Below are positions 3,687-19,935 of a DNA stretch of 40,111 nucleotides, one piece after another. The position numbers and the translations under genes are program-made. The first letter of the stretch is position 1; each line of letters starts with the position of its first letter. The DNA is from a bacterium (GTDB taxonomy: Bacteria > Patescibacteriota > Microgenomatia > Levybacterales > UBA12049): positions 1-40,111 of the forward strand of contig JAKALN010000003.1 of assembly GCA_021824155.1 (NCBI GenBank), in the 5' to 3' direction. Below the pieces are notes generated by a model that ran no database searches, was not told the origin of the DNA, and worked only from the letters and a program-made list of their open reading frames with translations.

Positions 3687-3776
3687 GAGCTAACTTCTGA
3701 CTTATAGATTATAGCTAATAGCCAATTGCATGTCCATTACCTTGACTATAAAACTCCAATACTATAAAGTAAAAAT

Positions 3777-4325: not shown

Positions 4326-4326
4326 C

Positions 4327-4352: not shown

Positions 4353-4378
4353 AGTCCTGAACTCATCGTAGTTTAGGG

Positions 4379-4465: not shown

Positions 4466-4472
4466 TAGATAC

Positions 4473-4904
4473 CTATATAACAATAGCTGTCATCAATTCT
4501 TGTACTTCTTTCCAAACATCTTTGTCCGATTTATACGTTAATCTTTCTTCTACTTTTTCAGGCCTTAGCCATTCAACATTTTCCATTTCAAAATCATGAT
4601 TATTTATATCTCCGGATAGATATTCCATTAAATAATAATAAACCTTCTTTTTTATTTTCTCCCCTTCGAATACGTACCAGTATCCAACTGGTTTTAACTG
4701 TTTTATTATTCTACCACGAACTCCGGTTTCTTCTTCAACCTCCCTTAAAGCGGTTTCTTCTTTTCCTTCGTTTTCTATATGGTCCCCTATTAAACCTTTG
4801 GGAAATACCCAGCCGTGATGCTGGGAATGTTGACATAATAATATTTCAATGCCGTTTTTGGTTTTTTGAAAGACAACTCCACCTGCTGAAAATTCAAATT
4901 TCAT
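4473..4904 (-). CDS. NUDIX hydrolase
   Basis: 143-aa ORF with a Nudix box, GLIGDHIENEGKEETALREVEEETGV (G-x5-E-x7-REVxEExG pattern). Flanked by tRNA genes at 7 nt (3' side) and 3 nt (5' side). Confidence 0.9.
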   Translation of the reverse strand: MKFEFSAGGVVFQKTKNGIEILLCQHSQHHGWVFPKGLIGDHIENEGKEETALREVEEETGVRGRIIKQLKPVGYWYVFEGEKIKKKVYYYLMEYLSGDINNHDFEMENVEWLRPEKVEERLTYKSDKDVWKEVQELMTAIVI

Positions 4905-4907
4905 AAG

Positions 4908-4994
4908 CGGAGAGGGTGAGATTCGAACTCACGGTTACCTTACGGCAACAGCGGTTTTCGAAACCGCCGCACTAGTCCGCTATGCGACCTCTCC
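4908..4994 (-). tRNA. tRNA-Ser (anticodon CGA)
   Basis: Minus-strand read: GGAGAGG TC GCATAGCGGACTAGTGC G GCGGT TTCGAAA ACCGC, then a long variable arm, T-arm GTGAGTTCGAATCTCAC, CCTCTCC G. Acceptor and D arm are identical to tRNA-Ser(UGA). No encoded CCA. Confidence 0.88.
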
Positions 4995-5038
4995 GAACGT
5001 ATTAAGGAGATTAGTCCCAGGCTTGGGGCGACCTCTCC
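4995..5038 (-). repeat. 44-nt conserved 5' leader of tRNA-Ser(CGA), copy B
   Basis: gaacgtattaaggagattagtcccaggcttggggcgacctctcc. 42/44 identical to 3643..3686. Confidence 0.8.
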
Positions 5039-5050
5039 AAACTTTAATTG

Positions 5051-5123
5051 CGTGCCCGAGAGGAATCGAACCTCCAACCGCCTGGACCGCAACCAGGTGT
5101 TCTGTCCGTTGAACTACGGGCAC
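5051..5123 (-). tRNA. tRNA-Arg (anticodon GCG)
   Basis: Minus-strand read: GTGCCCG TA GTTC AACGGACA GAAC A CCTGG TTGCGGT CCAGG CGGTT GGAGG TTCGATT CCTCT CGGGCAC G. Full 73-nt cloverleaf. U33 and G37 flank the anticodon GCG. Confidence 0.85.
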
Positions 5124-5249
5124 AAGCAACTTGTATTTTACTTTATTTATGGCTTTTTAACAAACTTGATCCCATTAAATTCTTCGCTTGGCTTAATTGG
5201 ATTTAGCGGGGTTGACATCCATAAAAAAATAGGACAAACTAAGCTTAGG

Positions 5250-6959
5250 ATGAAAATCGCTGTCCGTTTTCTTTTGATTGGATTACTAGCCTTTTTTAGC
5301 ATATTTTTCTTAGCTAAAACCTCCTTTGCCCAAACACAAAGCAATTACCCACCCGTAAACTCTTCTTATGCAGCTCCCAACACCAACCCTGATGTTCCCA
5401 ATAATCTTCACACATGGACACAAAATGTAATGATTGAAGTAATGTCTGCAATGAGCTGTCAGCTGGCAGGAATTGACCCGACTAATCCTTCTGCAAAATG
5501 CCTTGGCGTTGATAATAAAACAGGAAAAATAGGCTACGTACAAAACGGCGGAGGAGCCATAGGAATAATGGGAAATCTCATTGCCTTAACGCTTACGCCT
5601 CCTATTCATACAAGCGATTATATAGCTTATGTTTCAAGAAACTTTGGGATCGCCAAGCCTACATACGCTGCAAACCAAAGCGGATTTAATTCCCTCTCTC
5701 CAATTATGGGAACCTGGGTTGTATTTAGGAATATTGTCTATTTGTTGTTTGTGCTAATTTTCCTTGTAATAGGAATCGCAATCATGCTTAGGGTAAAAAT
5801 AGACCCCAGAACCGTTATGACAATTCAAAATCAAATTCCAAAAATAATAATTGGTCTTATTCTGGTTACTTTTTCTTTTGCTATTGCCGGTCTTTTGATT
5901 GATGTTATGTGGATTGTAATCTATCTTTTTATAAACGTACTATCTGCCGCAGACCCCAGTCTTGCAGCGGGAGGAGCAGGTAAAATTACCCAGGATCTTA
6001 ACAATACAACACTAAATTTTGCAAATAACCCGAATTTGTTCAGTGGAGGACTTTTGGGAGTTGCCGGCGGAGCAGCCGGCTCAATTGCAAGTATTATAGG
6101 CAGCATGTTTTCGGGAAGCGGCGCGGCAACACAAACTGCCGGCAATCCAATTATTGATTTAATTACTAACCCAATCGGAACAGCCTTGGGCGCAATAATT
6201 GGAGGACTTCTTACTATAGTAGGCGGAATTGCGGCTTTTTTCATAATTATGATTGCCCTTTTATGGGCGATGTTTAAGCTCTGGTTTTCTCTTTTAAATG
6301 CCTACATATTTATTCTTGTTGATGTTGTTTTTGCGCCTTTTTGGATAGTTTCCGGACTTTTGCCCGGAGGCCAATCAATGGGATTCAACGCCTGGTTAAG
6401 GGATATGCTTGGAAATCTATCTGCATTTCCTACTACAATCGCGATGTTTTTACTCGGAAAAATACTTATAGATTCTTTCGGAAATAATGGCAGCGCTCAG
6501 GGATTTTTACCTCCTCTTATAGGAAATCCTGCAGCGAGCGGAACAAATGTTTTCGGTTCGCTTATCGCCCTGGGAATAATATTTACCACTCCTCACGTTG
6601 TAAAAATTACCAAAGCCGCGTTTAAAGCTCCTAAGATTGACCTTGGGCCTATTGAAGAATCCGTAGGCGCCGGACAGGCAGTTGTCGGAGGATTTGTAGG
6701 CGGAGCAAGTAAGAGTGTTTTTAGAAGAGACCAATATGGCAGAGCAGAGGGACCTGGAGCACAATGGCTTGATACTAAAGTAAAAGTTAAAGCAGTAAGA
6801 ACACTTCTTGGTTGGAGAGATAAAAATTATAATCCATTTACTATCCAAGAAGATTTAACGGGCCCGGGAAAAAATCCAACCCCCACCCCGGTTACCAAAA
6901 AAGAAGTAAAAACTCCGCCGGCCCAACCGCCGGCCCCTGAAGGAAATAATAACGCTTAA
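5250..6959 (+). CDS. VirB6/TrbL-like polytopic T4SS membrane protein with signal peptide and Pro-rich C-terminal tail
   Basis: ORF-track frame 5052..6959, but its first 66 codons overlap tRNA-Arg. In-frame ATG 5250 gives MKIAVRFLLIGLLAFFSIFFLAKTSFAQ, a signal-peptide-like N-terminus. At least 6 long hydrophobic helices are separated by Gly-rich loops. C-terminus is GPGKNPTPTPVTKKEVKTPPAQPPAPEG. Family assignment rests on architecture and context, not on a search. Confidence 0.6.
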   Translation: MKIAVRFLLIGLLAFFSIFFLAKTSFAQTQSNYPPVNSSYAAPNTNPDVPNNLHTWTQNVMIEVMSAMSCQLAGIDPTNPSAKCLGVDNKTGKIGYVQNGGGAIGIMGNLIALTLTPPIHTSDYIAYVSRNFGIAKPTYAANQSGFNSLSPIMGTWVVFRNIVYLLFVLIFLVIGIAIMLRVKIDPRTVMTIQNQIPKIIIGLILVTFSFAIAGLLIDVMWIVIYLFINVLSAADPSLAAGGAGKITQDLNNTTLNFANNPNLFSGGLLGVAGGAAGSIASIIGSMFSGSGAATQTAGNPIIDLITNPIGTALGAIIGGLLTIVGGIAAFFIIMIALLWAMFKLWFSLLNAYIFILVDVVFAPFWIVSGLLPGGQSMGFNAWLRDMLGNLSAFPTTIAMFLLGKILIDSFGNNGSAQGFLPPLIGNPAASGTNVFGSLIALGIIFTTPHVVKITKAAFKAPKIDLGPIEESVGAGQAVVGGFVGGASKSVFRRDQYGRAEGPGAQWLDTKVKVKAVRTLLGWRDKNYNPFTIQEDLTGPGKNPTPTPVTKKEVKTPPAQPPAPEGNNNA

Positions 6960-9650
6960 TTAAACTTTGGTAAGCTTGCCGGTTGTTGATCTAAACCCCT
7001 TTAGGGCTCCTAAAAGACCTCCCGCTAAGGCTCCCCCCCCGCCCTCGGTTAAAAACATTCCAAATTCTGTTGTATGTGTAATTTTTCTAAGCTCGTTTAT
7101 TTCACTTTCTGTTAATATTCCTTTTTCCTTAATAAAGGCATAAATAGCCTGCATTTTAAGCATATTAAATCTTTCCTGGTCGCTGAATACATTTCTGTGG
7201 GATTCTATTTCTGCCTTAACCAGATATTCAAATACCCCCTTCCAAAGAAGTTGCCTCATCTCTGACGCCTGTATTTCGGCTACATCTACTTCTCCCACGC
7301 CGGACATATTCCAAACTTTCTGTTTTTCTTTTTTACCTGCAAGCCGTTTTGCTTTTCCCTCGTCAGTAAGCTCTGCCAGCTTCTTAGCTTCTACCTCCTC
7401 TGCCTGCCTTTTGAGTATTTTTACAATCTCTGGCCCAAATAACTCCATGAGAATCGGCATGTTTTTGGCAACAGGATCCTCTCTTTTTATTTTCCCGGTT
7501 TTATAATCCGAATTGTCTTCCTCCGTTATTTCTGTCTCCCAGGTTCTTACCTTTTTACTATAATCGGTACCTCCCCAAGTAGAAGCCCAATACCTTATTG
7601 CCTTATCTACTCCGTCGATAATCTTATTAGCTTTTTCATAATCAATAACGGGCCTTCCCATAACATCAAAGGTGAGCATATTCTGGAAATTAAACCCGTT
7701 ATGGTCAATTAAAAACTCGAGGAGAGTAAAGGAGTTCATTATGTGATTGGACGCAAAACCCCTCATGCTGTTTTCCGCAAAAGTTACTTTTGTAGGAAGC
7801 TCTCTTAAAGCTTGTTTTATGTTGATATCACTTCCTTCTCCCCCCTGAATAACTTCTATTATTGTTCTGCCTTTTTCGTCCCGTATTCCCTCAAACCAGT
7901 TGAGCCCCAATCTTTTTATTCCAAGCATATTAAAAATGTTTCCATATAAAGCATTCCTATGTTCTGCCATCTGCCTTAATCTGTATTCTTGCACATTTAA
8001 AGCTTTTGTCCAGGCGTCATGGCCAACCGCACCCGTATCATTTTTTGCGGCCAATCCGGTCCATTTAGTCATAGAAAACGCCCACGCTTCGGCGTACTTT
8101 GCCTCGTCGTAATCAAGGCCCATTTCCTGCATCACAGACTGGACCATCCTTTCCCTAACCTCCGAAATTATTGCCTCACTTTTTTGGGGACCCGGAGCGG
8201 TAAATACATTAATAAATTTAAGATATTCTCTTCTTACTTTTGGGTCGTTAATTTTAATTTTTCCTTCTGAGTCATACCAGGAGCTTCTGTCATAGGCCTC
8301 TCCTGTGTTTCCTTCTTTATTCGTCCCTTTCTTTTTTCCTTTAATATTTCCGTCGGCGTCTATTTCGTCATATTCTTGTGTAAATAATGCTATATCGTCT
8401 TTTGTAAAAAGCTTTTTGAGCATATCGTGGTCATAAATATAATAATAGGCCAAAAGAAGCCTTCTTGTTGCCTGCCCAACTCCAAAATTTTTTTCAAGCT
8501 TATCCTGTATTTCCCTTCCCTCTTGCAAGACCTCTCCTTGGGCCTGCCTCATTGAGGGCATACTCATAATCGTTTCCAGAAAATTGCTCCTTGTAAAAGT
8601 ATTCGGGGTATAAAGTTTATATATGGTTTTTGATAGTTCCGGTTCGTTAAATTGGTTTGCGACGTATTCAACGTGATTATTCCTTGAAGTATTAAATAGA
8701 AAAGCTTCCAACAAAAGCTCGTTTTTTAATGCTTCATAATCGTCGTTCTTGTGAAGGGTAGTTCTTTTAACCCTCAGGTCATCCTCCGGATTTGAAGTAG
8801 GCGGTTTAAGCAACGTCTCTTCTCTTTTCTCCAAGAAATAACTTCCTGTTAAAACCATATCCGCTAAGTTAACCTGGCTCCAGCGTGACTTTACAAATAT
8901 TCGCGAGAAAAAATCAACAGTTTCCGTAGGGCTGAATTCGTGGACTTCAATCATCCTTTTCCTTGCCCATGCGAGAAAATTCTCCTTATTAACTCTTCCT
9001 TCATAGTCAACAAGCTCTTTTTTACCTCCTGTTTTCCACTGTGCGCTCTCGGACTTCATAATAAGGACAGCCAAGTCTTCCAACGATTCGGGAATATCCG
9101 GGGCCACAGCTTCTGCGCTAACAAAATGCTCCCTTATTTCTTTTGAAAAATCCGGTAATATCCTTTTTATTTCAGATATATTCCCTTGTGATTTTAATTC
9201 CCTCAATCTTTCTATTACGGGCCTGTAACTATCTTCATATACTGCTTCTGCCAGTTGTTTGGTTTTATCGGCATAATAGAGAAAATTTTCTAATTCATCC
9301 GCTACGTTGGGATCGTCCAAGCTTTGGCCGTGCAGTATTACCCTAATCCCTTCTCCAAACTTTTTTTGAAATTCCTTCACGGGGTCTTCTATTTCCGGCG
9401 CTTCTACCTGACCCCTGCTTAACGCCGCTTCTCTTATTGATTCCCGGGAATTCCTAATTGCCTCCCTCCCTCTATTTATTTGTTCTTGCAAACTCAAGTT
9501 TTCTTGGGGCTCTTCTCTATTTTCTCCTGAGTTATCTGCGGGAGGAGTTTCTCCTCTCCCTGGTTCGGGCATAAAATTCCTTTCACCTTCCAGTCTAGGA
9601 AGATTGGATTTGTTTGTCAACTCAATATTTATCGGTTCTTGTTCTTTCAT
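6960..9650 (-). CDS. Large orphan protein (896 aa) with C-terminal Gly-zipper-like hydrophobic segment
   Basis: Long uninterrupted ORF. Acidic low-complexity N-terminus. No motif recognised. Ends ...FGMFLTEGGGGALAGGLLGALKGFRSTTGKLTKV. Its stop abuts the stop of the convergent VirB6-like gene (6959/6960). Confidence 0.85.
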   Translation of the reverse strand: MKEQEPINIELTNKSNLPRLEGERNFMPEPGRGETPPADNSGENREEPQENLSLQEQINRGREAIRNSRESIREAALSRGQVEAPEIEDPVKEFQKKFGEGIRVILHGQSLDDPNVADELENFLYYADKTKQLAEAVYEDSYRPVIERLRELKSQGNISEIKRILPDFSKEIREHFVSAEAVAPDIPESLEDLAVLIMKSESAQWKTGGKKELVDYEGRVNKENFLAWARKRMIEVHEFSPTETVDFFSRIFVKSRWSQVNLADMVLTGSYFLEKREETLLKPPTSNPEDDLRVKRTTLHKNDDYEALKNELLLEAFLFNTSRNNHVEYVANQFNEPELSKTIYKLYTPNTFTRSNFLETIMSMPSMRQAQGEVLQEGREIQDKLEKNFGVGQATRRLLLAYYYIYDHDMLKKLFTKDDIALFTQEYDEIDADGNIKGKKKGTNKEGNTGEAYDRSSWYDSEGKIKINDPKVRREYLKFINVFTAPGPQKSEAIISEVRERMVQSVMQEMGLDYDEAKYAEAWAFSMTKWTGLAAKNDTGAVGHDAWTKALNVQEYRLRQMAEHRNALYGNIFNMLGIKRLGLNWFEGIRDEKGRTIIEVIQGGEGSDINIKQALRELPTKVTFAENSMRGFASNHIMNSFTLLEFLIDHNGFNFQNMLTFDVMGRPVIDYEKANKIIDGVDKAIRYWASTWGGTDYSKKVRTWETEITEEDNSDYKTGKIKREDPVAKNMPILMELFGPEIVKILKRQAEEVEAKKLAELTDEGKAKRLAGKKEKQKVWNMSGVGEVDVAEIQASEMRQLLWKGVFEYLVKAEIESHRNVFSDQERFNMLKMQAIYAFIKEKGILTESEINELRKITHTTEFGMFLTEGGGGALAGGLLGALKGFRSTTGKLTKV

Positions 9651-9685
9651 ACTGCGGAAATTTTATGCCCATATAGATAAAAAAA

Positions 9686-9715
9686 CTTGATATTTAACTA
9701 ACAAAAAAATTACAA
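9686..9715 (+). promoter_or_regulatory. Sigma70-like promoter of the ATPase/wHTH regulator
   Basis: TTGATA (9686..9691), 18 nt, TACAAT (9710..9715), 10 nt before ATG 9726. Confidence 0.5.
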
Positions 9716-9725
9716 TACATTTACC

Positions 9726-11054
9726 ATGGAACCCACTCACTTTGAATCTATGTATCCGGAAAACACAAGAGCTCCGGAAATTGATAAACTTTTACAATTC
9801 GTAAAAGAAGGAAATTCCTGTCAGCTTATCGGGATTCCGGGAGCCGGACGCTCTAATGTTTTAGGGCTTTTGGCCTACAACAAAAACGTCCGGTTAAAAC
9901 ACCTGGGAGAAAACCAGAAATGGTTCCACTTTGTACTTTTAAATTTTTCAGAAATAAGAAATAAACCTCTTTTGGAAGCTACCAAATTCATATTTTTAGG
10001 ACTTTTAGATTCTTTACGGGAAAGGCAGATGAATAAAGAATATGAAACGGTAAATAAGATTTTTAAAGAAAGCGTAGTGATAAATGACGCGCTGGTTTTA
10101 TTCCAAGGGCTAAAAAAAACTGTTGATTTTTTGGCGATAGAAAATGAACTTACAATAGTTTTTTTATTTGACAGGTTTGAAGAATACGTTTCCTCTCTTA
10201 CTCCTGATTTTTTTGCAAATCTTAGAATTTTAAGGAACAGGGCAAAATACAGATTTTCTGTTGTATTTGCAGTGTCAAGGCCGGTAGAAGATGTTTTAGA
10301 ACCCGCTTTTTTTGCGGATTTTTATGAATTTATGGCCGGAAAAACTGTTTACATGTCAATCTATGACAAACCCGGGCTTGATTTTAGAATTTCATATCTT
10401 GAAAAAATAACAGGCAAAAAAATTAAAAGCGGAGTGCTTGAAAAGGTTATTTTTCTTTCGGGAGGCCACGGAAATTTAACGCGTCACTGTCTGGAAGCTG
10501 TCTTGGCAGAAAACCAAAAAGTAAAAGGAGACTTGAACGAATTTCTTTTAAAACAAAAGCCTGTCAGAAGCGCGCTTTTTGGAATTTGGAATGCGTTAAA
10601 CCCTTACGAGCAAAATAAGCTTTCTTTACTTAATTTTGAAGGTTCGGATATTTCTTATCTGGAAAACATCGGTTTAATAAAAAACGGTAAATTAACAATT
10701 CCTCTTTTAAAAGATTATATAAAAGAAAGCGCAAGAATACGCTCGGAAAACACAGGTCAAATAGTTTTTGATCAAAATACAAATCAGATTAAAAAAGGTG
10801 AGGTAGTTTTTTCCGATAAACTGACCTCTTCCGAATTCAAACTTTTAAAATTTCTTATAGCAACGGGCGGAAAAGTCGTTGACCGGGAAGAAATTATAAA
10901 TGCGGTTTGGGGAGAAATGCAGTCAACTGCAGGAGTAACAGACCAGGCCCTGGACCAGCTTATCTTTAGGCTCAGAAAAAAAATTGAGAATGATCCCAAC
11001 GTTCCAAAACATATTCATGCAATAAAAGGAAGGGGTTTTAGGTTTGAACCCTAG
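9726..11054 (+). CDS. P-loop (AAA/STAND-like) ATPase fused to a C-terminal OmpR/PhoB-type winged-helix DNA-binding domain
   Basis: Walker A-like GIPGAGRSNV. Walker B-like IVFLFDRFEE. C-terminal ~95 aa fit the trans_reg_C pattern: LTSSEFKLLKFLIATGGKVVDREEIINAVWG...DQLIFRLRKKIE...IHAIKGRGFRF. Confidence 0.75.
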   Translation: MEPTHFESMYPENTRAPEIDKLLQFVKEGNSCQLIGIPGAGRSNVLGLLAYNKNVRLKHLGENQKWFHFVLLNFSEIRNKPLLEATKFIFLGLLDSLRERQMNKEYETVNKIFKESVVINDALVLFQGLKKTVDFLAIENELTIVFLFDRFEEYVSSLTPDFFANLRILRNRAKYRFSVVFAVSRPVEDVLEPAFFADFYEFMAGKTVYMSIYDKPGLDFRISYLEKITGKKIKSGVLEKVIFLSGGHGNLTRHCLEAVLAENQKVKGDLNEFLLKQKPVRSALFGIWNALNPYEQNKLSLLNFEGSDISYLENIGLIKNGKLTIPLLKDYIKESARIRSENTGQIVFDQNTNQIKKGEVVFSDKLTSSEFKLLKFLIATGGKVVDREEIINAVWGEMQSTAGVTDQALDQLIFRLRKKIENDPNVPKHIHAIKGRGFRFEP

Positions 11055-11057
11055 ATA

Positions 11058-11086
11058 TTGCATTTAATTTATTCTTAGATTACGAT
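11058..11086 (+). promoter_or_regulatory. Sigma70-like promoter of the pilin/T4SS operon
   Basis: TTGCAT (11058..11063), 17 nt, TACGAT (11081..11086), 6 nt before ATG 11093. Confidence 0.5.
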
Positions 11087-11092
11087 TAGTTT

Positions 11093-12247
11093 ATGAGTAA
11101 AAAAATTCTAAGTATTTTTCTTGGAATAATTATTCTGTTTTCTTTTCCTTTTGTCTCTTCATTATCCGTGGCAAATGCAGATTTTCTCTGTTCGGTTTCT
11201 CCTTCAAGCATAAGTAACACCAAAAATCCTGTTACTTTTACTGTTGATAGCCACGGAAACCTTGCGGGCGGCAAATATTATGTTTCTGCCGGCTCGGCAA
11301 AAATAGGAGCAAACCGCGCTAGTATTGGAACCTTGTTTGACGCATCCGGCGGAAAAATAACCGTAACCGTTTCAAGAACTTATGATGTAGGAACTTGGCA
11401 GGTTGGAGTTTATCCTCAATATGATTCAGGGCATAATCTGTGTCAAAATGCCTCTTTTAGCGTATACGGTTCAAGTTCGGGCGGCAACACATGCGCCCTT
11501 AGCTTTACAAAACCAGATCCGTTTAACCCCAAACCATCGGACTACATAGCCGCTAAAATAACAAACCTTAGCGGCAATTTTGCTTCCGACGGACCGGATG
11601 CCCTATACCATACATACATCAGAGAAAATAATAACGATGGCGCTACTGTTTGGGACGGCTGTATAAAGAAAAGCAATTTTACAGATCCGAACGGATTTGG
11701 TTTTGGATATCTTTCAACGGGAAAATATTATATCCAGGTAAATGATAAGTGCGGAGGAGGATTCCTTTTTATAAACGCGGAAAATCAGGCATGTTATTCT
11801 TCTTTTTTTGTTGACCCAAGCGGAGGAGGAATAGGGCAAAGCGGAAGTCCGGATAACCCCGCTCCAAACACTCCGTGCCTTAACCACGACAAAAATGGCG
11901 CTTGCCTTTCGGTTGCCACAGGCCTTGGCGTTGACATAGGAACAAACCCTGCTAGTATAACCAGCTCGCTTTTTGGAATAATTCTGGGTATTTCAGGAGC
12001 AATTGCCCTGATCTTAATTATGATATCCGGATATCGAATCCTTGTCTCCCAAGGAAACCCGGAGGCTTTAAAAGGGGCAAGAGAACAGCTTACAGCTGCG
12101 ATTGTCGGGCTTTTGTTTATACTCTTGTCCATTGTGGTATTACAAATAATTGGAATAAATATTCTGCACCTGCCGGGATTTAGCGGCGGAGGAGGAGGTT
12201 CTGGCACATTTTTCCCCAACGGCAAAAACGGGATTGGAGTGCAATAA
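11093..12247 (+). CDS. Secreted Cys-rich two-module protein fused to a C-terminal VirB2/TrbC-like T4SS pilin domain
   Basis: Signal peptide MSKKILSIFLGIIILFSFPFVSSLSVANA. Two similar modules each carry GKYY[VI] and bracketing Cys. The C-terminal ~100 aa (SLFGIILGISGAIALILIMISGYRILVSQGNPEALKGAREQLTAAIVGLLFILLSIVVL) align with the three downstream small pilins. Confidence 0.7.
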   Translation: MSKKILSIFLGIIILFSFPFVSSLSVANADFLCSVSPSSISNTKNPVTFTVDSHGNLAGGKYYVSAGSAKIGANRASIGTLFDASGGKITVTVSRTYDVGTWQVGVYPQYDSGHNLCQNASFSVYGSSSGGNTCALSFTKPDPFNPKPSDYIAAKITNLSGNFASDGPDALYHTYIRENNNDGATVWDGCIKKSNFTDPNGFGFGYLSTGKYYIQVNDKCGGGFLFINAENQACYSSFFVDPSGGGIGQSGSPDNPAPNTPCLNHDKNGACLSVATGLGVDIGTNPASITSSLFGIILGISGAIALILIMISGYRILVSQGNPEALKGAREQLTAAIVGLLFILLSIVVLQIIGINILHLPGFSGGGGGSGTFFPNGKNGIGVQ

Positions 12248-12251
12248 AATT

Positions 12252-12593
12252 ATGAAGGAATTAGCATTAAGTCTTCCCGGCGGATATTCCATTTCCCCTC
12301 CGGGCGGTATCCCGCAAAACGGGATGACAAGCGGAGAGAATCTGCTTCAGGCAGCGCTTACTATTACCTTTACCATAGCCATTGCTCTGTTTATTGCTTT
12401 TATAGTTTACTCCGGAATACAGTGGGCAATATCCGGAGGAGACAAACAAAAGCTTCAGCAGGCACGAAGCAGAATCACCTTTTCCATAATCGGGCTTATT
12501 GTGGTATTGGCAGCTTTTTTTATAGTGCGTATTGTCTTTACCGTCTTGGGCGGTTCGGGAACTCCTGGGCTTTTCTTCCCCAACACCCCTTGA
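12252..12593 (+). CDS. VirB2/TrbC-like T4SS pilin paralog
   Basis: Two-TM hairpin with the shared loop motif: ...FIAFIVYSGIQWAISGGDKQKLQQARSRITFSIIGLIVVLAAFFIV. ATG 12252 is preferred over the TTG 12234 of the ORF track. Confidence 0.7.
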   Translation: MKELALSLPGGYSISPPGGIPQNGMTSGENLLQAALTITFTIAIALFIAFIVYSGIQWAISGGDKQKLQQARSRITFSIIGLIVVLAAFFIVRIVFTVLGGSGTPGLFFPNTP

Positions 12594-12632
12594 CAAATCA
12601 ATAAAAACACTATATTCTCAGAATAGACAGCT

Positions 12633-13046
12633 ATGAAAAGAAGTCTTGGAATTATAACAGGTTTTGGATTTTACTTAGCAAACTTAACTTCAGCATATGC
12701 GGTCGGCGGAATAGGCGAAACCGTGCCTCTTCAAACACCAACCGGCTCAATAGGCAACATTCCCCTGCAAAACATCCCCCAATTTATCATTACTCTTCTT
12801 TTTATAATAGGCGTTCTTGTTGCTGTTGCTTTTCTAATTTATGGCGGAATTAAATGGATACTTTCAGGCGGAGACAAAGCAGCCGTAGATGCCGCAAGAA
12901 AACATATTGTTGCCGCAATAATCGGTCTTGTTATAGTAGCCGGAGCATTCTTTATATTAAACGTTGTCTTTACTGTTCTTGGAGTAAGCAATCCTTTGTC
13001 CGGAGGCAAATTCTGCATTCCAAGCCTTACCAGCCCCACCTGCTAA
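12633..13046 (+). CDS. VirB2/TrbC-like T4SS pilin paralog with signal peptide
   Basis: MKRSLGIITGFGFYLANLTSAYA signal, then ...VAFLIYGGIKWILSGGDKAAVDAARKHIVAAIIGLVIVAGAFFIL. The C-terminal tail has 2 Cys. Confidence 0.75.
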   Translation: MKRSLGIITGFGFYLANLTSAYAVGGIGETVPLQTPTGSIGNIPLQNIPQFIITLLFIIGVLVAVAFLIYGGIKWILSGGDKAAVDAARKHIVAAIIGLVIVAGAFFILNVVFTVLGVSNPLSGGKFCIPSLTSPTC

Positions 13047-13086
13047 TCCTCTTGTCTTTTGTTTTCTTATTTGTTACGCTAATTTT

Positions 13087-13401
13087 ATGATTGATTGGGG
13101 TTCATGCGTACAGGGAGCGGATAGCGTTGCTACTCTTCAGTGCCTTCCCGTTGTATTTAGTAATATTATTTTTTGGATAGGCGGACTTGCCGCCATAACA
13201 ACAGTTTTTTTTGTAATATTTTCCGGAATAAAGTTTCTAAACTCAGGGGGCGACCCAAAACAGGTCGAGGGAGCAAGAAAAACCCTTACGTTTGCGATAA
13301 TAGGCTTTGTTATAATTTTGCTCTCTTTTACTATAATAAAAGCTATTGCAGCTTTTACAGGAACCCAATGTGTTACCCCTTTTCTAAAGTTTCAGTGTTG
13401 A
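13087..13401 (+). CDS. VirB2/TrbC-like T4SS pilin paralog
   Basis: ...VFFVIFSGIKFLNSGGDPKQVEGARKTLTFAIIGFVIILLSFTII. 4 Cys, 2 N-terminal and 2 C-terminal. Confidence 0.75.
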   Translation: MIDWGSCVQGADSVATLQCLPVVFSNIIFWIGGLAAITTVFFVIFSGIKFLNSGGDPKQVEGARKTLTFAIIGFVIILLSFTIIKAIAAFTGTQCVTPFLKFQC

Positions 13402-13489
13402 TTTTTCACGGATAGCCTCATTCTTAATATTTTTTGACATAGTTTGATAATCTTGAAACGTAATTTTTCACGTTATACACTCGTTTTAT

Positions 13490-14719
13490 ATGGAAAATCA
13501 CCCTATTCCCCAAGATATAACCGGTTTTCAGTTTAAACTTATAGGCGACATGACCGTAAAACAATTTGCATATCTTGCCGGCGGAATAGTTCTTGCCTGG
13601 GTTTTTTTCGCAAGCCCGCTTTTTGTAATCATAAAACTTCCTCTTGCCGCTTTGTCTGCTTTTTTGGGAGTAGGGCTTGCCTTTTTTCCTATTGAGGGAC
13701 GTCCGATGGATTTAATGTTCACAAACTTTGTGAAAGCTATTGTATCCCCAACTCAGTTTATTTATCAAAAAACAGGAGGGCATCTTTGGGTACAAACCCC
13801 TCAAATAAAAAATCCTAACGCAAAATTCGTCCCCCAGAAAGAAACAACCGCTTTGTCCGGAGAAGAGCTTAAAGAGTATCTGCGCACGCTGCCCAAGAGA
13901 CCAAAAAATCAACTGGATCAAAAAGAGATGGTGTTTTTTGAATCACTGGCCAACATGTATAACAAAGGGCAGGCACAGCAGCCGGCTCCAATTCCGGAAG
14001 CTGTAACGCCGCATGTCTTTGCCAACCTGGTGCCGGCCAAACAGCAAATAACCTCAGAACCGGTAAAAAAAGAGCCCGCTCAAGCACCCTCCGACAAAGA
14101 AGCCTCTCTGCAAAAAGAAGCTTTGGTCTTGGAGCAACAGTTGGAAGCGGCAAAAGCTTTGGAAGCGGCAAGAGCCGGCTCGCAGGAATACAACGAAGCA
14201 CACAGAAAAGTATTGGAGCTTGAAAGCATGCTTTCCGAAACTGCAAGTCAAAAACAAGAACTGGAAAAACAAATTGCCCTTTTGCAAAAACAGCTTTCAA
14301 CAGAACACAAACAAGTTTATACTCCTTCCATGGCAAAGGAGCCAATAAAAGAAACCAGAAATGTCAGAAGTATTCCACAGGGACTTGGAAAAAGTATAGG
14401 CCTTCCCATAGCTCCGGAGTTTCCAAACATAATAACCGGGATAGTTAAAGACCCGAGAGGAAACCCTTTACAAAATATCCTGGTAGAGGTTAAAGATGCA
14501 GACGGAAATCCCGTAAGGGCATTTAAAACTAACCCCCTTGGACAATTTGCTTCTGCAACTCCTATAGCAAACGGCACATACACAATAGAATTTGAAGACT
14601 CAAAAGGAGAGAACAAGTTCGATGTCATAGAATTCAGCGCAACAGGACAAATAATACTGCCCATAGAGATTATATCCGTTGACACAAGAGAAGAATTAAG
14701 GAGGTCTCTTTTTAATTAA
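13490..14719 (+). CDS. PrgI/VirB3-like membrane protein fused to a coiled coil and a carboxypeptidase-regulatory-like beta-sandwich domain
   Basis: The N-terminus MENHPIPQDITGFQFKLIGDMTVKQFAYLAGGIVLAWVFF fits the PrgI-family signature ([VI]P.DI ... K[IL].G..T..QF plus TM hairpin). Q/E/A-rich coiled coil in the middle. C-terminal ITGIVKDPRGNPLQNILVEVKDADGNPVRAFKTNPLGQFA...GTYTIEF resembles CarboxypepD_reg-type domains. Confidence 0.6.
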   Translation: MENHPIPQDITGFQFKLIGDMTVKQFAYLAGGIVLAWVFFASPLFVIIKLPLAALSAFLGVGLAFFPIEGRPMDLMFTNFVKAIVSPTQFIYQKTGGHLWVQTPQIKNPNAKFVPQKETTALSGEELKEYLRTLPKRPKNQLDQKEMVFFESLANMYNKGQAQQPAPIPEAVTPHVFANLVPAKQQITSEPVKKEPAQAPSDKEASLQKEALVLEQQLEAAKALEAARAGSQEYNEAHRKVLELESMLSETASQKQELEKQIALLQKQLSTEHKQVYTPSMAKEPIKETRNVRSIPQGLGKSIGLPIAPEFPNIITGIVKDPRGNPLQNILVEVKDADGNPVRAFKTNPLGQFASATPIANGTYTIEFEDSKGENKFDVIEFSATGQIILPIEIISVDTREELRRSLFN

Positions 14720-15388
14720 ATGGCTAAATCTGCCCGAAAAATCAACGCAACGACACAAAGATTTACCGAAATACAAGATATAGTCGACGATGTTGTAATC
14801 TTATCCGGAGGAAGCGCGTGCCTTGTAATCGAGGTAACGGCCACAAACTTTGCCCTCCTTTCCGCAGAAGAGCAGGATTCCAAAATCTATTCTTACGCGG
14901 CATTATTAAACTCGCTTTCTTTTCCTATTCAAATATTAATAAGGAGTAAAAAACTGGATATATCGTCTTATTTAAAGCTTTTGGATAATGAATCAAAAAA
15001 AACCCAAAACCAAATGCTTGCCGAGCAAATAAGGCTTTACAGAGACTTCGTACAGGAATTGGTAAAAGTTAATACTGTTTTGGATAAAAAATTCTATATT
15101 TCTATTCCCTTCTCTTTCCTTGAAAAAGGAGCTGGAGCTGCGGCAACTACTGTTAACAAAAAAAGCTTTGACGCTTCTTCTATTGCCCAAACGGCAAAGT
15201 CCGCTCTTCATTCAAAGGCCGAATCTCTTCACTCCCAGTTGTCAAGATTAAATTTAAGGGCAAGGACCCTTGAGAAAGAGGAGTTGGTTAAGCTTTTTTA
15301 TGAAATCTATAACGATAATATTATTGAAACAGGGCAAGCGGGAGACAACATTAACGCACCTGTAGTCAAAAGCAGGGAAAATGTATGA
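14720..15388 (+). CDS. Free-standing protein resembling the N-terminal domain of VirB4/TrsE-type ATPases
   Basis: IQDIVDDVVILSGGSACLVIEVTATNFALLSAEEQDSKIYSYAALLNSLSFPIQILIRSKKLD parallels the region upstream of the P-loop in VirB4-family proteins, including the next ORF. No Walker motifs. Start abuts the upstream stop (14719/14720). Its stop overlaps the VirB4 start (ATGA at 15385..15388). Confidence 0.5.
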   Translation: MAKSARKINATTQRFTEIQDIVDDVVILSGGSACLVIEVTATNFALLSAEEQDSKIYSYAALLNSLSFPIQILIRSKKLDISSYLKLLDNESKKTQNQMLAEQIRLYRDFVQELVKVNTVLDKKFYISIPFSFLEKGAGAAATTVNKKSFDASSIAQTAKSALHSKAESLHSQLSRLNLRARTLEKEELVKLFYEIYNDNIIETGQAGDNINAPVVKSRENV

Positions 15389-17334
15389 AATTATTTGATA
15401 AAAAAAATAAAAAAACACAAGCTCCGCAAGCCGTAAAACAAACGGGAACCCCCGCCGCAATAGGCTCTCTTGAAAAAGGAATGGTTTCCCTTACGGATGT
15501 AATAGCTCCTTCCTCTATAGAGGTTGATTTTCATTTTATAAGAATCGGGGAAAATTTTTATAAAACCTCTTTTGTTGTTGGATACCCTCGCTTTGTTTCT
15601 CCAAACTGGCTCCAGCCTTTAATTGATTTTGACCACTCCATGAATATTTCTATGTTTATTTATCCAACATCCTCCCCGGACGTACTGTCTGATTTAAGGA
15701 GAAAAATTGCAGAGATGGAAGCAACAATATCTTCTCAGGTTGAGGAGGGTCAGCTTGTTGATCCTAAAGTAAAGGCTTCTTTAGACGATGCTTTGGCTGT
15801 GCAGGAGGAGCTTGCAAAAGGCGTTGAAAGATTTTTTCAGTTTAGCCTTTACGTAACTTTGTCTGCGGAAAACGTCAAAGAGCTTGATGACGCATCAAAA
15901 AGACTGAACACAACGCTTGGCTCCATCCTTATGCTTTCTAAAACAGCTACTCTCCAAATGGAAGACGGATTTAAATCAAGCATACCGCTTGCCCAAGACA
16001 GGCTTTTTATTACAAGAAATATGGATACAACTTCGCTTGCTTCAACTTTTCCTTTTACATCCGCAACCCTTGCCCAAGATAAGGGGGTAATGTATGGAAT
16101 AAACGAACAAAACGGTTCTTTGATAATTTTTGACCGGTATTCTCTTGAAAACGCCAACGAGGTTGTTTTGGGAAAATCCGGGGCGGGAAAGTCATATCTT
16201 ATTAAGCTTGAGGCAATGAGGCAATTTATGTTTGGAACAGAAGTAATAATAATAGACCCTGAGGGGGAATATGAAAGCCTAACAAAGACCATGGGCGGGG
16301 AACACGTTTCATTTACCCCATCGGATCCTGTAAGGATAAATCCTTTTGATATGTCCGGCCTTTACGAAGAGGGAGAAAATGAGCTTGGGCTTAAAATCTT
16401 ATCCCTGCACGGACTCTTAAGGATTATTATGGGCGACCTGGATGCCTCACATGATGCAATTTTAGACAGGGCGCTTGTTGAAACGTACAGACAAAAAGGT
16501 ATAACGGCCGACCCGGCAACCCAAAAAAACCAGCCGCCTTTAATGGAAGATTTATATAAAGTGCTTCTTGGAATGGAAGACCCTTCCGCAAGAGAGCTTG
16601 CTCTAAGACTTGAGAAATTTATTAAAGGAAGTTTAAGCGGAATATTTAACCAACAATCAAACTTTGACATTAAAAATCCCCTTACGGTGTTTAATATTAA
16701 GGCCCTTGAGGAAGAATTAAGGCCTGTTGCGATGCATATAGTGTTAGACTTTGTTTGGACAAGGGTAAGAAAGACCCTAAAAAAAAGGCTTCTTATCCTT
16801 GACGAGGCGTGGTATGTAATGAAATACCCCGATTCCGCATCTTTTGTATATAGCGTAGCTAAAAGGTCAAGGAAGTACTATCTTGCCTTAACAACAGCAA
16901 CTCAAGACGTGCAGGATTTCCTTTCTACCGATTACGGAAAAGCAATCTTGTCCAATTCCTCAATTCAGATGCTTTTAAAGCAAAGCCCCTCCGAGGTTGA
17001 CCTGGTTTCGCAAATATTTTACCTTTCCCAGGGAGAAAAAGAACTTTTGCTTTCGGCAGACATCGGTGAGGGATTGTTTTTCGCAGGACAAAGTCACGTT
17101 GCAATAAAAGTAATTGCCGCTCCTTTTGAACACACCCTGATAACATCAAACCCCCAAGAAATCCTAAAAATGCAGGAAGACGCTGTAGTGCCCCAAACCC
17201 CCGACATAACACTGCCAGAGCCCCCTACAGTGACACAAGATACTGTAGCAACACAAAGCGCTCCCTCGCCAACCGAACCGGTTTCTCCACTGCATAATAA
17301 CCCCGGTCAAACAGAGATTCAGAAACCTACTTAG
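15385..17334 (+). CDS. virB4: VirB4/TraC/PrgJ-family T4SS ATPase
   Basis: Walker A VLGKSGAGKSYL. Walker B KRLLILDEAWYVM. Family-typical length and layout. Pro/Thr-rich C-terminal tail. Confidence 0.88.
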   Translation: MKLFDKKNKKTQAPQAVKQTGTPAAIGSLEKGMVSLTDVIAPSSIEVDFHFIRIGENFYKTSFVVGYPRFVSPNWLQPLIDFDHSMNISMFIYPTSSPDVLSDLRRKIAEMEATISSQVEEGQLVDPKVKASLDDALAVQEELAKGVERFFQFSLYVTLSAENVKELDDASKRLNTTLGSILMLSKTATLQMEDGFKSSIPLAQDRLFITRNMDTTSLASTFPFTSATLAQDKGVMYGINEQNGSLIIFDRYSLENANEVVLGKSGAGKSYLIKLEAMRQFMFGTEVIIIDPEGEYESLTKTMGGEHVSFTPSDPVRINPFDMSGLYEEGENELGLKILSLHGLLRIIMGDLDASHDAILDRALVETYRQKGITADPATQKNQPPLMEDLYKVLLGMEDPSARELALRLEKFIKGSLSGIFNQQSNFDIKNPLTVFNIKALEEELRPVAMHIVLDFVWTRVRKTLKKRLLILDEAWYVMKYPDSASFVYSVAKRSRKYYLALTTATQDVQDFLSTDYGKAILSNSSIQMLLKQSPSEVDLVSQIFYLSQGEKELLLSADIGEGLFFAGQSHVAIKVIAAPFEHTLITSNPQEILKMQEDAVVPQTPDITLPEPPTVTQDTVATQSAPSPTEPVSPLHNNPGQTEIQKPT

Positions 17335-17352
17335 TTTTGTTATTATTAGTTT

Positions 17353-18369
17353 ATGGACCAAAATCAAGACCAGGAAGAGCGCAAAAAAGAAGGGCCGCTT
17401 ACCCGCTCTATCAACACAGTTAATAGAGGCAGAGACTATTTAAGGTATGGTAAACAACTAAGAAATTTGGCTAGGGTCGGCCGGGCCGCGCAGGGAGCTG
17501 AAGCAGCGGGAGAAGGGATAATGGCTGCTGCGGGAGCAGGAGAAGGGGCTGCGGCATTAGCCGGCGGAGCGGGAGCCGCAGGCAGCGCAGGAGCCGCTGC
17601 GGGAGCAGGAGCAGCAGGTGGTGCGGTGGCCGCCGGAGGCGCTGCTGCTGCAGGAGGGGCAGCTACCGCGCCCGCATGGATCCCAGTTGCTGCTGTTTTG
17701 GGAGTGTGTTTGGTTGTAGTTATTATTGTTGTTGTTTTTTTCGGAGGCGCTCCGACGGCTAATGGAGGCGACCTAAACACACCCGCCCCGACAGAATCAG
17801 CAAGCCCTTCCCCGTCCGGCCAATTCCCAAACAACATCACCAACTGGGCAAAACAAATAAGCGATAAGATTGAACCCTTTTATCCGCCCTGTGGAAATAT
17901 TTTTATGAATAATGTTATGCTGCAAACCGTAACAAATGGTACATACACCGCGCACAAAAAACCAGGCTCATCTTGCGGAATAGCCGCAAGTACTTATTAC
18001 TGTTCGGATTTAATAATAGATTCTTATAATCTTTCGGGGGTTAAAGTGGGTTTTTGGGAATGGGTTCCTAATATGATTAGCGGCTGGTCATCTGTCCCGG
18101 GATTAAGCGTTAGAAAAACCAACAACGTTAACGGGCTACAACCCGGGGACGCTGTTTTTTGGCTTACTAACGCCAATAATTATGGTTCTGCGCAACACGT
18201 TGACATGATATACAATATTGACGTCGGCCAAAGCGGAAACGGCACTGTTACCACAATAGATGCAAACACTAACAATAAATTTAATACGTTTTATGTTAAG
18301 AATTGGGGTATAATTGGAATCTGGACAGACGGAGCAAATAGCCCGTGGTTTGGGCTGGCGCCAAGATGA
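17353..18369 (+). CDS. Membrane-anchored papain-fold (NlpC/P60- or CHAP-like) cell-wall hydrolase with a long N-terminal Ala/Gly low-complexity tract
   Basis: Ala/Gly tract at aa 42-107, TM helix WIPVAAVLGVCLVVVIIVVVFF, then a C-terminal domain with candidate Cys (YYCSDLII), GDAVFW, candidate His (AQHVDMIY) and TIDANTN. The position after VirB4 matches PrgK-type hydrolases. Confidence 0.6.
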   Translation: MDQNQDQEERKKEGPLTRSINTVNRGRDYLRYGKQLRNLARVGRAAQGAEAAGEGIMAAAGAGEGAAALAGGAGAAGSAGAAAGAGAAGGAVAAGGAAAAGGAATAPAWIPVAAVLGVCLVVVIIVVVFFGGAPTANGGDLNTPAPTESASPSPSGQFPNNITNWAKQISDKIEPFYPPCGNIFMNNVMLQTVTNGTYTAHKKPGSSCGIAASTYYCSDLIIDSYNLSGVKVGFWEWVPNMISGWSSVPGLSVRKTNNVNGLQPGDAVFWLTNANNYGSAQHVDMIYNIDVGQSGNGTVTTIDANTNNKFNTFYVKNWGIIGIWTDGANSPWFGLAPR

Positions 18370-18821
18370 ATAATGTTTTTTTAATTCTTGCTAAAAAATA
18401 TTTTGTGTTTATTGCTTTTGGGCTTTTCTTATTAGCTTTGTTTATTTTGGCTTTTTTACCAAAAAATAAACCACCTGCAACGCAAATAGCCCCTTCGCCA
18501 ACCGTCCAACCAATAATAAACCCAGGACAATCACAATCGGAAAAACAAGGACAAGCCGACTATCAATACAATAAGGCTATTAACGATTTTTATTCCTCAC
18601 ATCCATGGTACAATAAAATTCCTCCAAAAAATAATGATTATTTTATCGGGTACGATGCTTCAACAAGTAGTTTTTTTGTTGAGCTTTATCCAAAAACAAC
18701 ATCTGGTGTTTCTGTTAACGATCAGGTCGCACGGCTAAAAAACGAGGTTATCCAAACTCTTAATTTGATTGGGGTTGACACATCTTCTTATAAAATAGAT
18801 TGGTTGGTATACCCTCAATAA
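18366..18821 (+). CDS. Small bitopic membrane protein (positional analogue of PrgL/VirB8-like components)
   Basis: ATG 18366 overlaps the upstream stop (ATGA). N-terminal TM FVFIAFGLFLLALFILAF followed by a ~110-aa soluble domain. The functional call rests on gene order only. Confidence 0.6.
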   Translation: MNNVFLILAKKYFVFIAFGLFLLALFILAFLPKNKPPATQIAPSPTVQPIINPGQSQSEKQGQADYQYNKAINDFYSSHPWYNKIPPKNNDYFIGYDASTSSFFVELYPKTTSGVSVNDQVARLKNEVIQTLNLIGVDTSSYKIDWLVYPQ

Positions 18822-18825
18822 ACCA

Positions 18826-19935
18826 TTATCCCTGCACTCTGATTGGCATTATTAAATGAAGGAAGGAGTTGTCGCCCGATGCTTTAAACACTCCCGCACC
18901 CAAAGGACCTGACATTTCAAAAACAACGCTTTCTTCTTCCGTGTTTGCAAAAAAATCTAAAAGGTACCTCCCGTTAAACGCTATTTCATTTTCTTCTCCG
19001 GAGATTTTTGCCTCCACCTCAACCGTATCTTCACCAACGCTCGGACTGTTTGCCGAAACAACAACCTTATCTTTTTTTAAAGAAAACTTTACTATGTTTG
19101 CTGTTTCCCTGGCAAACACCGAACATATTTTTACAGCCCGTTGCATTTCGTCCCTATCAAATTCTGCTTTTGTGTCAAACCCTGAGGGAATTATTTTTTC
19201 ATAGTTTGGGTACTCTGCCTCTATCAACCTGCCAACCAGAACCGTCTCCCCCTGTGTAAAAATAGCCTGGTTGTTTTTACCGGAAACGTTTAGCACGATT
19301 TCCTCGTCTTGTTTTATGGAAATCAATTCCCTTATTGCCCTTGCCGACAAAAGAAGCTGCTCAGCACCTTCCCCTTTTTTTGTTTTTAACAAAACGTTGT
19401 TTTTTAAAGAAAGCCTGTATCCGTCTGTTGCTACAATCAAAAACCCTCCGCCTTCCTTCTTGATTAAAACCCCCGAAAGCGCCGGTCTTCCACTGTCTTG
19501 GCTTGCCGCAAAAACCACCCTGTTGAACTCCTTAACAAGTGTCTCTTTTTTTAGGGTTGCTATCTCTTCCCCTTTGTCCGTGTAAAGTTTTGGGAAATCC
19601 TCTGCCGGCATTGTCTGAAAAGTCATTCTTATTTTTTTGCCTTTTAATTCCAGGTTTTGTCCTTTTGTTTCAAGGGTTATTTTTTCTTCCGTTATGTTGT
19701 TTATCAGGTCAAAAAACGTTTTTGCCGGAACCGTTGTTTCCCCTTCTTCCTCAACGTTTGCGGGAATAGAAGAAGATATGCCTATCTCTAGATCTGTTGC
19801 GCTAATGGTAAGTTTTCCTTTTGATGCATTAAGAAGAAAATTGGAAAGAATCTCCAATTGACTGTTGCCGGAAACGGCATGGTTTAAGAAAGATATTTTT
19901 CCCCGCAAGTTTTCTGTTAAAAAAGAAACAATCAT
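18826..19935 (-). CDS. dnaN: DNA polymerase III beta sliding clamp
   Basis: 369 aa, typical three-domain clamp length and sequence character, immediately downstream of dnaA. Confidence 0.93.
   Translation of the reverse strand: MIVSFLTENLRGKISFLNHAVSGNSQLEILSNFLLNASKGKLTISATDLEIGISSSIPANVEEEGETTVPAKTFFDLINNITEEKITLETKGQNLELKGKKIRMTFQTMPAEDFPKLYTDKGEEIATLKKETLVKEFNRVVFAASQDSGRPALSGVLIKKEGGGFLIVATDGYRLSLKNNVLLKTKKGEGAEQLLLSARAIRELISIKQDEEIVLNVSGKNNQAIFTQGETVLVGRLIEAEYPNYEKIIPSGFDTKAEFDRDEMQRAVKICSVFARETANIVKFSLKKDKVVVSANSPSVGEDTVEVEAKISGEENEIAFNGRYLLDFFANTEEESVVFEMSGPLGAGVFKASGDNSFLHLIMPIRVQG

Follow-up and report, generated by a model that had tools for sequence, protein, structure and literature searches.

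Which component of the chromosomal type IV secretion system (T4SS) of Patescibacteria meets the host cell is the question raised by an operon in a stretch of 40,111 nucleotides from a Levybacterales bacterium (Microgenomatia, Patescibacteriota; contig JAKALN010000003.1, positions 1-40,111; hereafter the window, whose coordinates are used throughout). Such systems are widespread in Patescibacteria, sit by the replication origin and are essential for epibiotic growth in the one species tested (PMC12102498, PMC10633639, PMC11665869), the saccharibacterium Southlakia epibionticum (PMC10633639, Wang et al. 2023). They resemble the mating-pair-formation type MPF-FATA, lie near dnaA usually without a relaxase, and contain no detected adhesin (PMC12102498, Quinonero-Coronel et al. 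2025), and their role is still called unknown (PMC11665869, PMC12857230). The operon of the window is this already-known system, beside dnaN-dnaA, and its first structural gene (11093..12247, plus strand, here called the long pilin) encodes a signal peptide and two immunoglobulin (Ig)-like modules ahead of a VirB2-like pilin hairpin. This T4SS pilin probably displays a domain for contact or specificity, and offers a concrete, testable candidate for the missing host-contact element.

Architecture of the long pilin

The open reading frame (ORF), corroborated by homologues, encodes 384 amino acids (aa) plus a stop, and all of its parts lie on the plus strand. A classical signal peptide (residues 1-29, 11093..11179) is recognizable from hydropathy and sequence by its KK n-region, hydrophobic core and VANA|DF site; the A-x-A site is kept in homologues, two to three residues ahead of the first cysteine, and cleavage would follow VANA. 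Two modules predicted by AlphaFold2 to be Ig-like beta-sandwiches come next: module 1 (residues 30-127, 11180..11473) between C33 and C117, and module 2 (residues 128-243, 11474..11821) with C134-C234 and a second, co-varying pair, C190-C220. A Gly/Pro-rich linker, a small Cys loop (C262...C271) and the conserved pre-helix sequence TGLGxxIGTxP (residues 244-285, 11822..11947) lead to the pilin hairpin (residues 286-362, 11948..12178), which consists of two hydrophobic helices, the loop SQGNPEALKGAREQ and a conserved PGF motif at the end, and is followed by a Gly-rich, variable C-terminal tail (residues 363-384, 12179..12244). The sequence-only reading had concentrated on 11093-11944, which corresponds to residues 1-284 and is thus the entire part of a longer gene N-terminal to the hairpin; the signal peptide and the leading position that it assigned to this gene (the first structural gene, with a regulator directly upstream) both stand.

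Homologues numbered 59 by word search, about 20 of them full length, and 110 by an exhaustive search with a profile limited to the two modules. Public records name them just "pilin" or "hypothetical", and the genome records with relatives are metagenome-assembled genomes (MAGs) of Levybacteria/Levyibacteriota, Daviesbacteria and "Patescibacteria group". An alignment of 55 sequences, mutually at most 50% identical, was made from the window protein and 54 profile hits of ~255-555 aa; in nearly all of them a single stretch matched both modules, and a C-terminal PF18895 domain is present in 53 of the 55. Logan contigs from three separate runs (10829-13080, 9782-12451 and 9688-12464) cross the join near 11900 with zero differences. 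With at least 55 clusters sharing this architecture, and with six syntenic loci on related contigs (L001, L002, L004, L005, L006 and L007), an assembly chimera or frameshift near 11900, the event that might have undone the sequence-only reading, is excluded. Other long PF18895 proteins (250-476 aa) have the same hairpin and pre-helix junction, joined to unrelated Cys-rich or beta-rich ectodomains in which no Pfam match was found; in the alignment consensus the junction motif is retained even in these.

Hydropathy places the hydrophobic segments of the hairpin at residues 287-321 and 329-365, and AlphaFold2 its helices at residues 286-318 and 323-356. Residues 288-352 match PF18895 (T4SS_pilin; 28.6 bits versus a cut-off of 26.6, profile positions 7-70 of 71), and no other Pfam family was detected in the window protein at E<=0.1, including PF04956 (TrbC/VirB2), which matched 8 of the 55 relatives weakly (best E 0.0019). 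By its sequence, the hairpin is a VirB2-like type IV secretion pilin and not a type IV pilus pilin. It has the two hydrophobic helices with a short polar loop, the export signal and the clustering with VirB4 and VirB3/PrgI that characterize PF18895, but not the small precursor size (~100-150 aa), having 384 aa versus 104-137 aa in the neighbouring pilins. The earlier proposal of a Gly/Pro linker followed by a complete pilin domain is therefore retained, with the type of pilin corrected from type IV pilus to T4SS. The C-terminal tail, predicted with a local distance difference test score (pLDDT) below 50, is missing in most long-pilin homologues, which end in PGFG, PGFK or PGFS. The Gly-rich tails of the long pilin (12190-12244) and of short pilin 2 (12552-12593) share the string FFPN (GTFFPNG, GLFFPNT), and short pilins 3 and 4 have C-terminal Cys-x(n)-Cys loops instead (CIPSLTSPTC, QCVTPFLKFQC).

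AlphaFold2, run with an alignment of 20 homologues (a single-sequence run gave a pLDDT of 42), returned a model of mean pLDDT 70 and predicted template modelling score (pTM) 0.34, in which all-beta domains have their strands within residues 34-125 and 135-240. Module 1, of eight strands, has pLDDT 76-88 and module 2 60-84, and residues 242-258 of the linker fall below 50 (disordered). Foldseek produced 50 matches in the PDB at E<=1e-3, the top ones mostly tandem pairs of Ig or fibronectin type III (FN3) domains aligned over 205-250 columns, that is, over both modules, with probabilities of 0.96-1.0; they include contactin FN1-3, PECAM Ig1-2, NCAM Ig5-FN1, neogenin FN5-6 and Vibrio cholerae RbmA. 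A fold search of a viral library likewise returned Ig-like, Big and FN3 proteins. Pfam at E<=0.1 assigned the window protein to no curated Ig family such as Big_5, and a PDB sequence search with the family profile gave nothing meaningful (best match tetranectin, E=0.059). Weak matches of the two-module profile fall on Big_5 and SprB repeats in giant surface proteins; the giant proteins themselves (P0060, P0064, P0096 and others) were rejected as pilin relatives, their matches being repeat-driven and of the Big_5/SprB Ig-like type.

All eight cysteines (33, 117, 134, 190, 220, 234, 262 and 271) are in the predicted extracellular part. Conservation, scored in the 55-sequence alignment, is complete for C117, C134, C234 and C262, and C33 is found in 52 of 53 sequences, in agreement with the earlier description of each module as starting and ending with a cysteine. 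In the model the first cysteine of each module is at its first strand and the last at its last strand, an arrangement that fits C33-C117 and C134-C234 as first-to-last-strand disulfide staples. C190 and C220, a pair inside module 2 that the sequence-only reading did not include, are both present in 32 sequences, both absent in 18 and discordant in five (Fisher p=1.5e-9); they have thus been gained or lost together, a joint history that gives good, if indirect, support to a disulfide between residues 190 and 220.

The duplication of the modules emerges only in the larger profile comparison. Pairwise they show no similarity (BLASTP E=22), and hhalign gave ~10% probability with 20 sequences; with the 55 diverse sequences it gave 95% probability (P=4e-8, score 41.4, versus a mean of 8.2, standard deviation 1.5 and maximum of 13.1 in 150 column shuffles). 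The duplication is thus real but old. In the homologous register C33 is equivalent to C134, GTWQVGVY to GKYYIQVN, and C117 to C234. The description of two similar modules accordingly survives at the level of profiles, though not of single sequences, and the GKYY pairing on which it was founded proved to be out of register, the two motifs lying 27 and 75 residues past the first cysteine of their own modules: a coincidence of a common beta-strand motif. Together with the tandem Ig/FN3 structural matches, the profile homology bears out the repeated fold, the absence of which would have told against the sequence-only reading.

Divergence and exchange of the ectodomain

Conservation falls from the hairpin towards the distal module 1. 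Mean pairwise identity among the 20 closest relatives is 74% in the hairpin, 53% in the linker, 43% in module 2 and 28% in module 1. Compared with the six syntenic loci, the window long pilin is 73-75% identical in the hairpin, 45-77% in module 2 and 19-69% in module 1; the corresponding values are 86-89% for VirB4, 75-82% for dnaN and 60-75% for the regulator. The short pilins range from 46-61% (pil2) through 43-82% (pil3) to 56-73% (pil4) in the loci compared, and the long-pilin hairpin is more conserved than two of the three in every locus and usually than the third too. Such conservation fits, without proving, docking of the hairpin on conserved parts of the machine, for example as an initiating and hence tip-located subunit. 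Rates of nonsynonymous substitution (dN) follow the same pattern: 0.23-0.68 in module 1, 0.015-0.22 in the hairpin and 0.03-0.10 in VirB4.

Two of the loci differ from the window in opposite ways: L004 is 77% identical in module 2 and 22-24% in module 1, and for L006 module 1 stands at 69% and module 2 at 52-56%. Read from these alignments, the patterns are those of a mosaic. Third-position identity to L004 is 0.49 in module 2, close to the background of 0.50-0.52 in the regulator, TrsD and VirB4, and is at random level in module 1 (0.33) and the signal peptide (0.25). Because module 1 is at random level while module 2 is at background, module 1 has apparently been replaced as a cassette, and the breakpoint falls at the short Ser/Gly stretch joining the two.

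The window sequence was found in mine-drainage metagenomes. Contigs from relatives that co-occur in the source metagenomes were recruited at >=85% to the regulator, PrgI and VirB4 genes and not to 11004-12339, which is covered at single-strain depth, and the population contigs list no variants inside the long pilin gene. The gap in recruitment over the long pilin and the lack of variants within the gene point to divergence between lineages and not to hypermutation within a population. The elevated diversity for which the sequence-only reading proposed a test is therefore present between lineages, as divergence and cassette replacement, and absent from the population contigs.

The operon and its neighbours

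The order regulator, long pilin, three short pilins, PrgI, TrsD, VirB4 is common to all six related loci, and the long pilin is also first in the array in more distant Levybacteria-type loci whose ectodomain differs. The regulator (9726..11054, plus strand, 442 aa), directly 5' of the long pilin and identically placed in all six loci, has a winged-helix Trans_reg_C domain at its C-terminus (PF00486, E=1.7e-19). A second Trans_reg_C regulator of 434 aa (30181-31485) has the same domain layout. Promoter-like sites numbered 23 in the window versus 18.1 +/- 4.9 in shuffled sequences, a count not above expectation, and no promoter is claimed.

All three short pilins are encoded on the plus strand and match PF18895: short pilin 2 (12252..12593, E=4e-9), short pilin 3 (12633..13046, 137 aa with its own signal peptide, E=4.5e-9) and short pilin 4 (13087..13401, 104 aa, E=9.4e-9). 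They are merely 17-28% identical to the long-pilin hairpin. The listed TTG start of short pilin 2 at 12234 overlaps the long pilin, so that the ATG at 12252 is the likelier start. The next gene (13490..14719, plus strand) encodes a PrgI/VirB3-like membrane protein (PF12666, E=1.9e-7) with a C-terminal CarboxypepD_reg beta-sandwich (PF13620, E=6.1e-8), so that a second membrane component of the T4SS has a beta-sandwich, which is probably extracellular; the protein has 409 aa, and its long, charged middle region is rich in Ala, Glu, Lys and Gln. A TrsD/TraC-like protein of 222 aa (14720..15388, plus strand) matches NCBIfam TrsD (E=8.3e-5) and the N-terminal part of VirB4_plasma (E=1e-10), both under the cut-off, and its homologues in related loci have PF26593 (TraC-like). 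The VirB4-type T4SS ATPase (15385..17334, plus strand, 649 aa) matches PF19044 (E=2.8e-26), DUF87 and AAA_10. No relaxase or coupling protein was seen within the window.

Beyond VirB4 are two unassigned genes and then, on the opposite strand, dnaN and dnaA. One of the two (17353..18369, plus strand) encodes a hypervariable protein of 338 aa with a Gly/Ala-rich region, one transmembrane segment (102-139) and a Cys-containing C-terminal domain, without matches in Pfam or NCBIfam; its Gly/Ala-rich tract lifts the local GC content to 0.51. Farther upstream of the long pilin, past the regulator, are a hypervariable gene for 896 aa without a family match (6960-9650, minus strand) and the gene of a polytopic membrane protein (5052..6959, plus strand). 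The 896-aa and 338-aa genes are 20-34% identical to their syntenic counterparts versus 86-89% for VirB4; flanking the conserved T4SS core and as variable as module 1, they could equally be candidates for host-facing proteins. The polytopic membrane protein has at least five hydrophobic segments and syntenic genes in L001, L002 and L004; family searches gave no match to it, and it may be a VirB6/PrgH-like channel subunit. Its listed GTG start is overlapped by a tRNA-Arg gene (5050-5123), and the real start is probably downstream of the latter.

That tRNA-Arg gene (gcg) belongs to a minus-strand cluster (3501-5123) with three tRNA-Ser genes (tga, gga and cga). Repeated flanks, 81-85% alike (3501-3581 with 4324-4404; 3555-3691 with 4907-5043), contain a hairpin-forming element, AGCGGCATAAACC...GGTTTATGCC. 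A 30-nt inverted repeat (32790-32819 and 33718-33747, 93% complementary, arms 898 nt apart) has its first arm within the class-I tRNA synthetase gene (31517-33691) and its second where the ORF that follows begins.

In related loci, small 23S_rRNA_IVP genes (PF05635) are found between the T4SS genes: in L001 at 5773-6144, 7560-7916, 10480-10866 and 12165-12536, in L004 at 6111-6509 and 10472-10882, and in L007 at 5080-5457. Some have faint or weak matches to bAvd, an Avd-like four-helix bundle; none is in the window. A GIY-YIG gene is near them in L001 and L004, with no reverse transcriptase seen alongside. They may be selfish insertions or something linked to the operon. Loci L008, L010, L013 and L015 are from MAG records with a Patescibacteria-type pilin/T4SS locus, several of which are titled "uncultured Gammaproteobacteria bacterium", probably a taxonomic mislabel.

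Possible role and relation to known systems

The protein may work as follows. It would be exported by the Sec pathway and cut by signal peptidase after VANA; the two Ig-like beta-sandwiches would fold outside the membrane, each stapled by a disulfide from first to last strand, module 2 with a second bond, C190-C220, suggested by co-variation. The flexible Gly/Pro linker and small Cys loop would tether them to the conserved two-helix hairpin, which, by analogy with VirB2/TraA, would lie in the membrane, its two ends on the outer side, and could then be extracted with the three neighbouring short pilins into a T4SS-associated filament or conduit. In VirB2-type filaments the pilin N-termini face outward, so that the two Ig-like modules would be exposed at the surface, or at the tip if the long pilin were incorporated first. 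The distal module 1 diverges fast and is swapped between lineages while the hairpin stays constant, as would be expected of a part facing a partner that varies, for example the surface of the host cell, or of one exposed to pressure from phages or host defence.

These features make the ectodomain pilin a good, though unproven, candidate for the component in contact with the host cell, and we rate its role as a displayed contact or specificity domain as probable. The tip or cap position and adhesion itself are further steps that we infer, and the data accommodate a tip subunit, lateral decoration and a non-polymerised membrane anchor without separating them. The sequence-only reading had called the domain the obvious specificity determinant of the apparatus. 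The ectodomain, and module 1 above all, is indeed the most variable part of the protein, as would fit such a role; the uniqueness implied by "obvious" does not hold.

Several points weigh against a contact role. High variability is seen too in the short pilins and in the 896-aa and 338-aa genes, which leaves module 1 as one of several candidates for specificity. Synonymous divergence (dS) is saturated in nearly all pairs, so that dN/dS is uninformative for positive selection, and dN and third-position identity were used. The structural matches are generic, with two-domain template modelling scores (TM-scores) of merely 0.15-0.36 and, at a pTM of 0.34, uncertain inter-domain geometry; the low scores, expected if the hinge differs, limit the Ig/FN3 assignment to the level of fold class. 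Ig-like tandems are spacers as often as binders, and no binding-site feature was identified in the ectodomain. Metatranscriptomes of the same study contained nothing matching positions 9000-19000 of the window. A 250-residue appendage on every subunit might be sterically difficult to pack, a point in favour of a minor role but not of any one location. Filament formation is not established for any PF18895 pilin of Patescibacteria (PMC12857230).

The chief alternative makes the long pilin a structural spacer: the hairpin would be a membrane anchor or stalk subunit of the T4SS, and the Ig-like pair, with the beta-sandwich of the PrgI-like protein, a scaffold that spans the wall. Monoderm T4SSs require wall-crossing components (PMC12857230), the adjoining PrgI/VirB3-like protein also has a beta-sandwich taken as extracellular, and most of the Ig/FN3 tandems among the Foldseek matches serve as stalks or spacers. 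Conservation would be expected of a fixed scaffold in contact with conserved components of the machine; module 1, however, is the most variable segment of all and was replaced in its entirety, and ectodomains as wholes vary from lineage to lineage atop an unchanged hairpin; a scaffold is on balance unlikely. It is less likely again that the protein is a pro-protein from which the N-terminal 250 residues are removed at the junction, so that an ordinary short pilin is left and the rest is either set free as a secreted Ig-like protein or discarded. Among characterised pilins, those of the VirB2/TraA/TrbC kind begin as long-leader precursors and are then trimmed, the junction (PPC...C..TGLGxIGTxP) is conserved whatever the ectodomain, and it resembles the mature N-terminus of short pilin 3. 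Set against these likenesses are a linker of the flexible Gly/Pro tether type and a folded, disulfide-stapled two-domain architecture, kept in 53 of 55 clusters, that exceeds the needs of a leader; no protease gene or cleavage motif was identified.

Hypermutation of the ectodomain by a diversity-generating retroelement (DGR), for whose signatures the sequence-only reading suggested a search, is very improbable. It would account for the high variability of the ectodomain, and 23S_rRNA_IVP/Avd-like genes occur within the operon in L001, L004 and L007. The window, in contrast, has no template repeat, no reverse transcriptase and no Avd-like gene, and none of its direct or inverted repeats involves 11093-11944; the sole RVT_3 match is an RNase H and not a reverse transcriptase. 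Population contigs list no variant positions in the gene, and the variation spans whole modules with indels and cassette replacement instead of substitutions at A sites. For an artefact that fused the gene of a secreted protein to a pilin gene near 11900, the unusual size of 384 aa for a VirB2-like pilin is the sole basis, and the independent assemblies, syntenic loci and junction-spanning contigs described above reduce its probability to practically nil.

Returning to a displayed contact domain as the preferred reading, a more specific version of it is tentative, and we consider it more doubtful than the general one by a wide step: the long pilin might be a dedicated "display pilin" that primes the T4SS filament in Microgenomatia-type Patescibacteria, its conserved hairpin docked on the machine and its outermost cassette (module 1, elsewhere an unrelated Cys-rich ectodomain) serving as the host-recognition determinant, lateral exchange of which would re-target the epibiont to new hosts. 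If true, the VirB2 family would gain its first pilin with an adhesin built in, and host range could be read from the genomes of uncultivated bacteria of the candidate phyla radiation. Residues 30-243 are a defined soluble fragment for studies of structure and binding, and the module-1 type is a sequence marker whose correlation with host taxa could be sought in metagenomes. The claim stays modest: both operon and pilin family were known before, the modules form an Ig-like tandem of generic fold, and binding and filament formation are possibilities raised by comparative evidence.

Among the papers searched and read there was no report of a VirB2-family pilin with a folded ectodomain of ~250 aa, nor of a fixed first position of the long pilin in the array or of modular exchange of its ectodomain. 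Arrays of VirB2-like pilins are most abundant in Microgenomatia and Saccharimonadia (PMC12102498). The window array is like those described in Patescibacteria in its PF18895 pilins, PrgI/VirB3, TrsD and VirB4, its several divergent pilin paralogues and its position by dnaA/dnaN, but the described members are short and structurally similar, and neither a folded ectodomain of this size nor a constant first position is mentioned for them (PMC12102498, PMC10633639). With VirB2, TraA and TrbC of T, F and RP4 pili the long pilin shares the two-helix hydrophobic hairpin, the short polar basic loop, an N-terminal leader and the VirB3/VirB4 cluster. Unlike the characterised mature pilins, which have ~70-120 aa without a folded appendage and in some cases are cyclised head to tail, it has 250 extra residues ahead of the hairpin, belongs to a monoderm host and lacks a PF04956 match.

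The proposed role, that of a minor, surface-exposed subunit in contact with the target, resembles that of the VirB5/TraC minor pilins and tip adhesins (at the T-pilus tip, and CagL on the cag T4SS), but these are separate helical proteins, unfused to a VirB2 hairpin, whereas the long-pilin ectodomain is all-beta and resembles them in neither sequence nor fold. Unlike the PrgB-type adhesins of Gram-positive T4SSs, the long pilin was found to contain neither an LPxTG sortase anchor nor the Pfam domains of PrgB. Pilin-like proteins of Mycoplasma integrative and conjugative elements (NF045849, NF045848) share the hairpin and the setting of a monoderm T4SS, and an extension is likewise present in one of these families (322 aa), but the matches are far under the cut-offs (20.8 bits versus 40; 19.5 versus 90) and the extension is C-terminal of the hairpin. 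The modules themselves are most like Big_5 repeats (PF13205) and the tandem FN3 domains of the matrix protein RbmA (PDB 5g50, which gave the best TM-score normalised by target length, 0.36), having the beta-sandwich with a G-x-Y-x-V-x-V strand motif in common with them, whereas the first-to-last-strand disulfide staple and the fusion to a pilin are specific to the long-pilin family.

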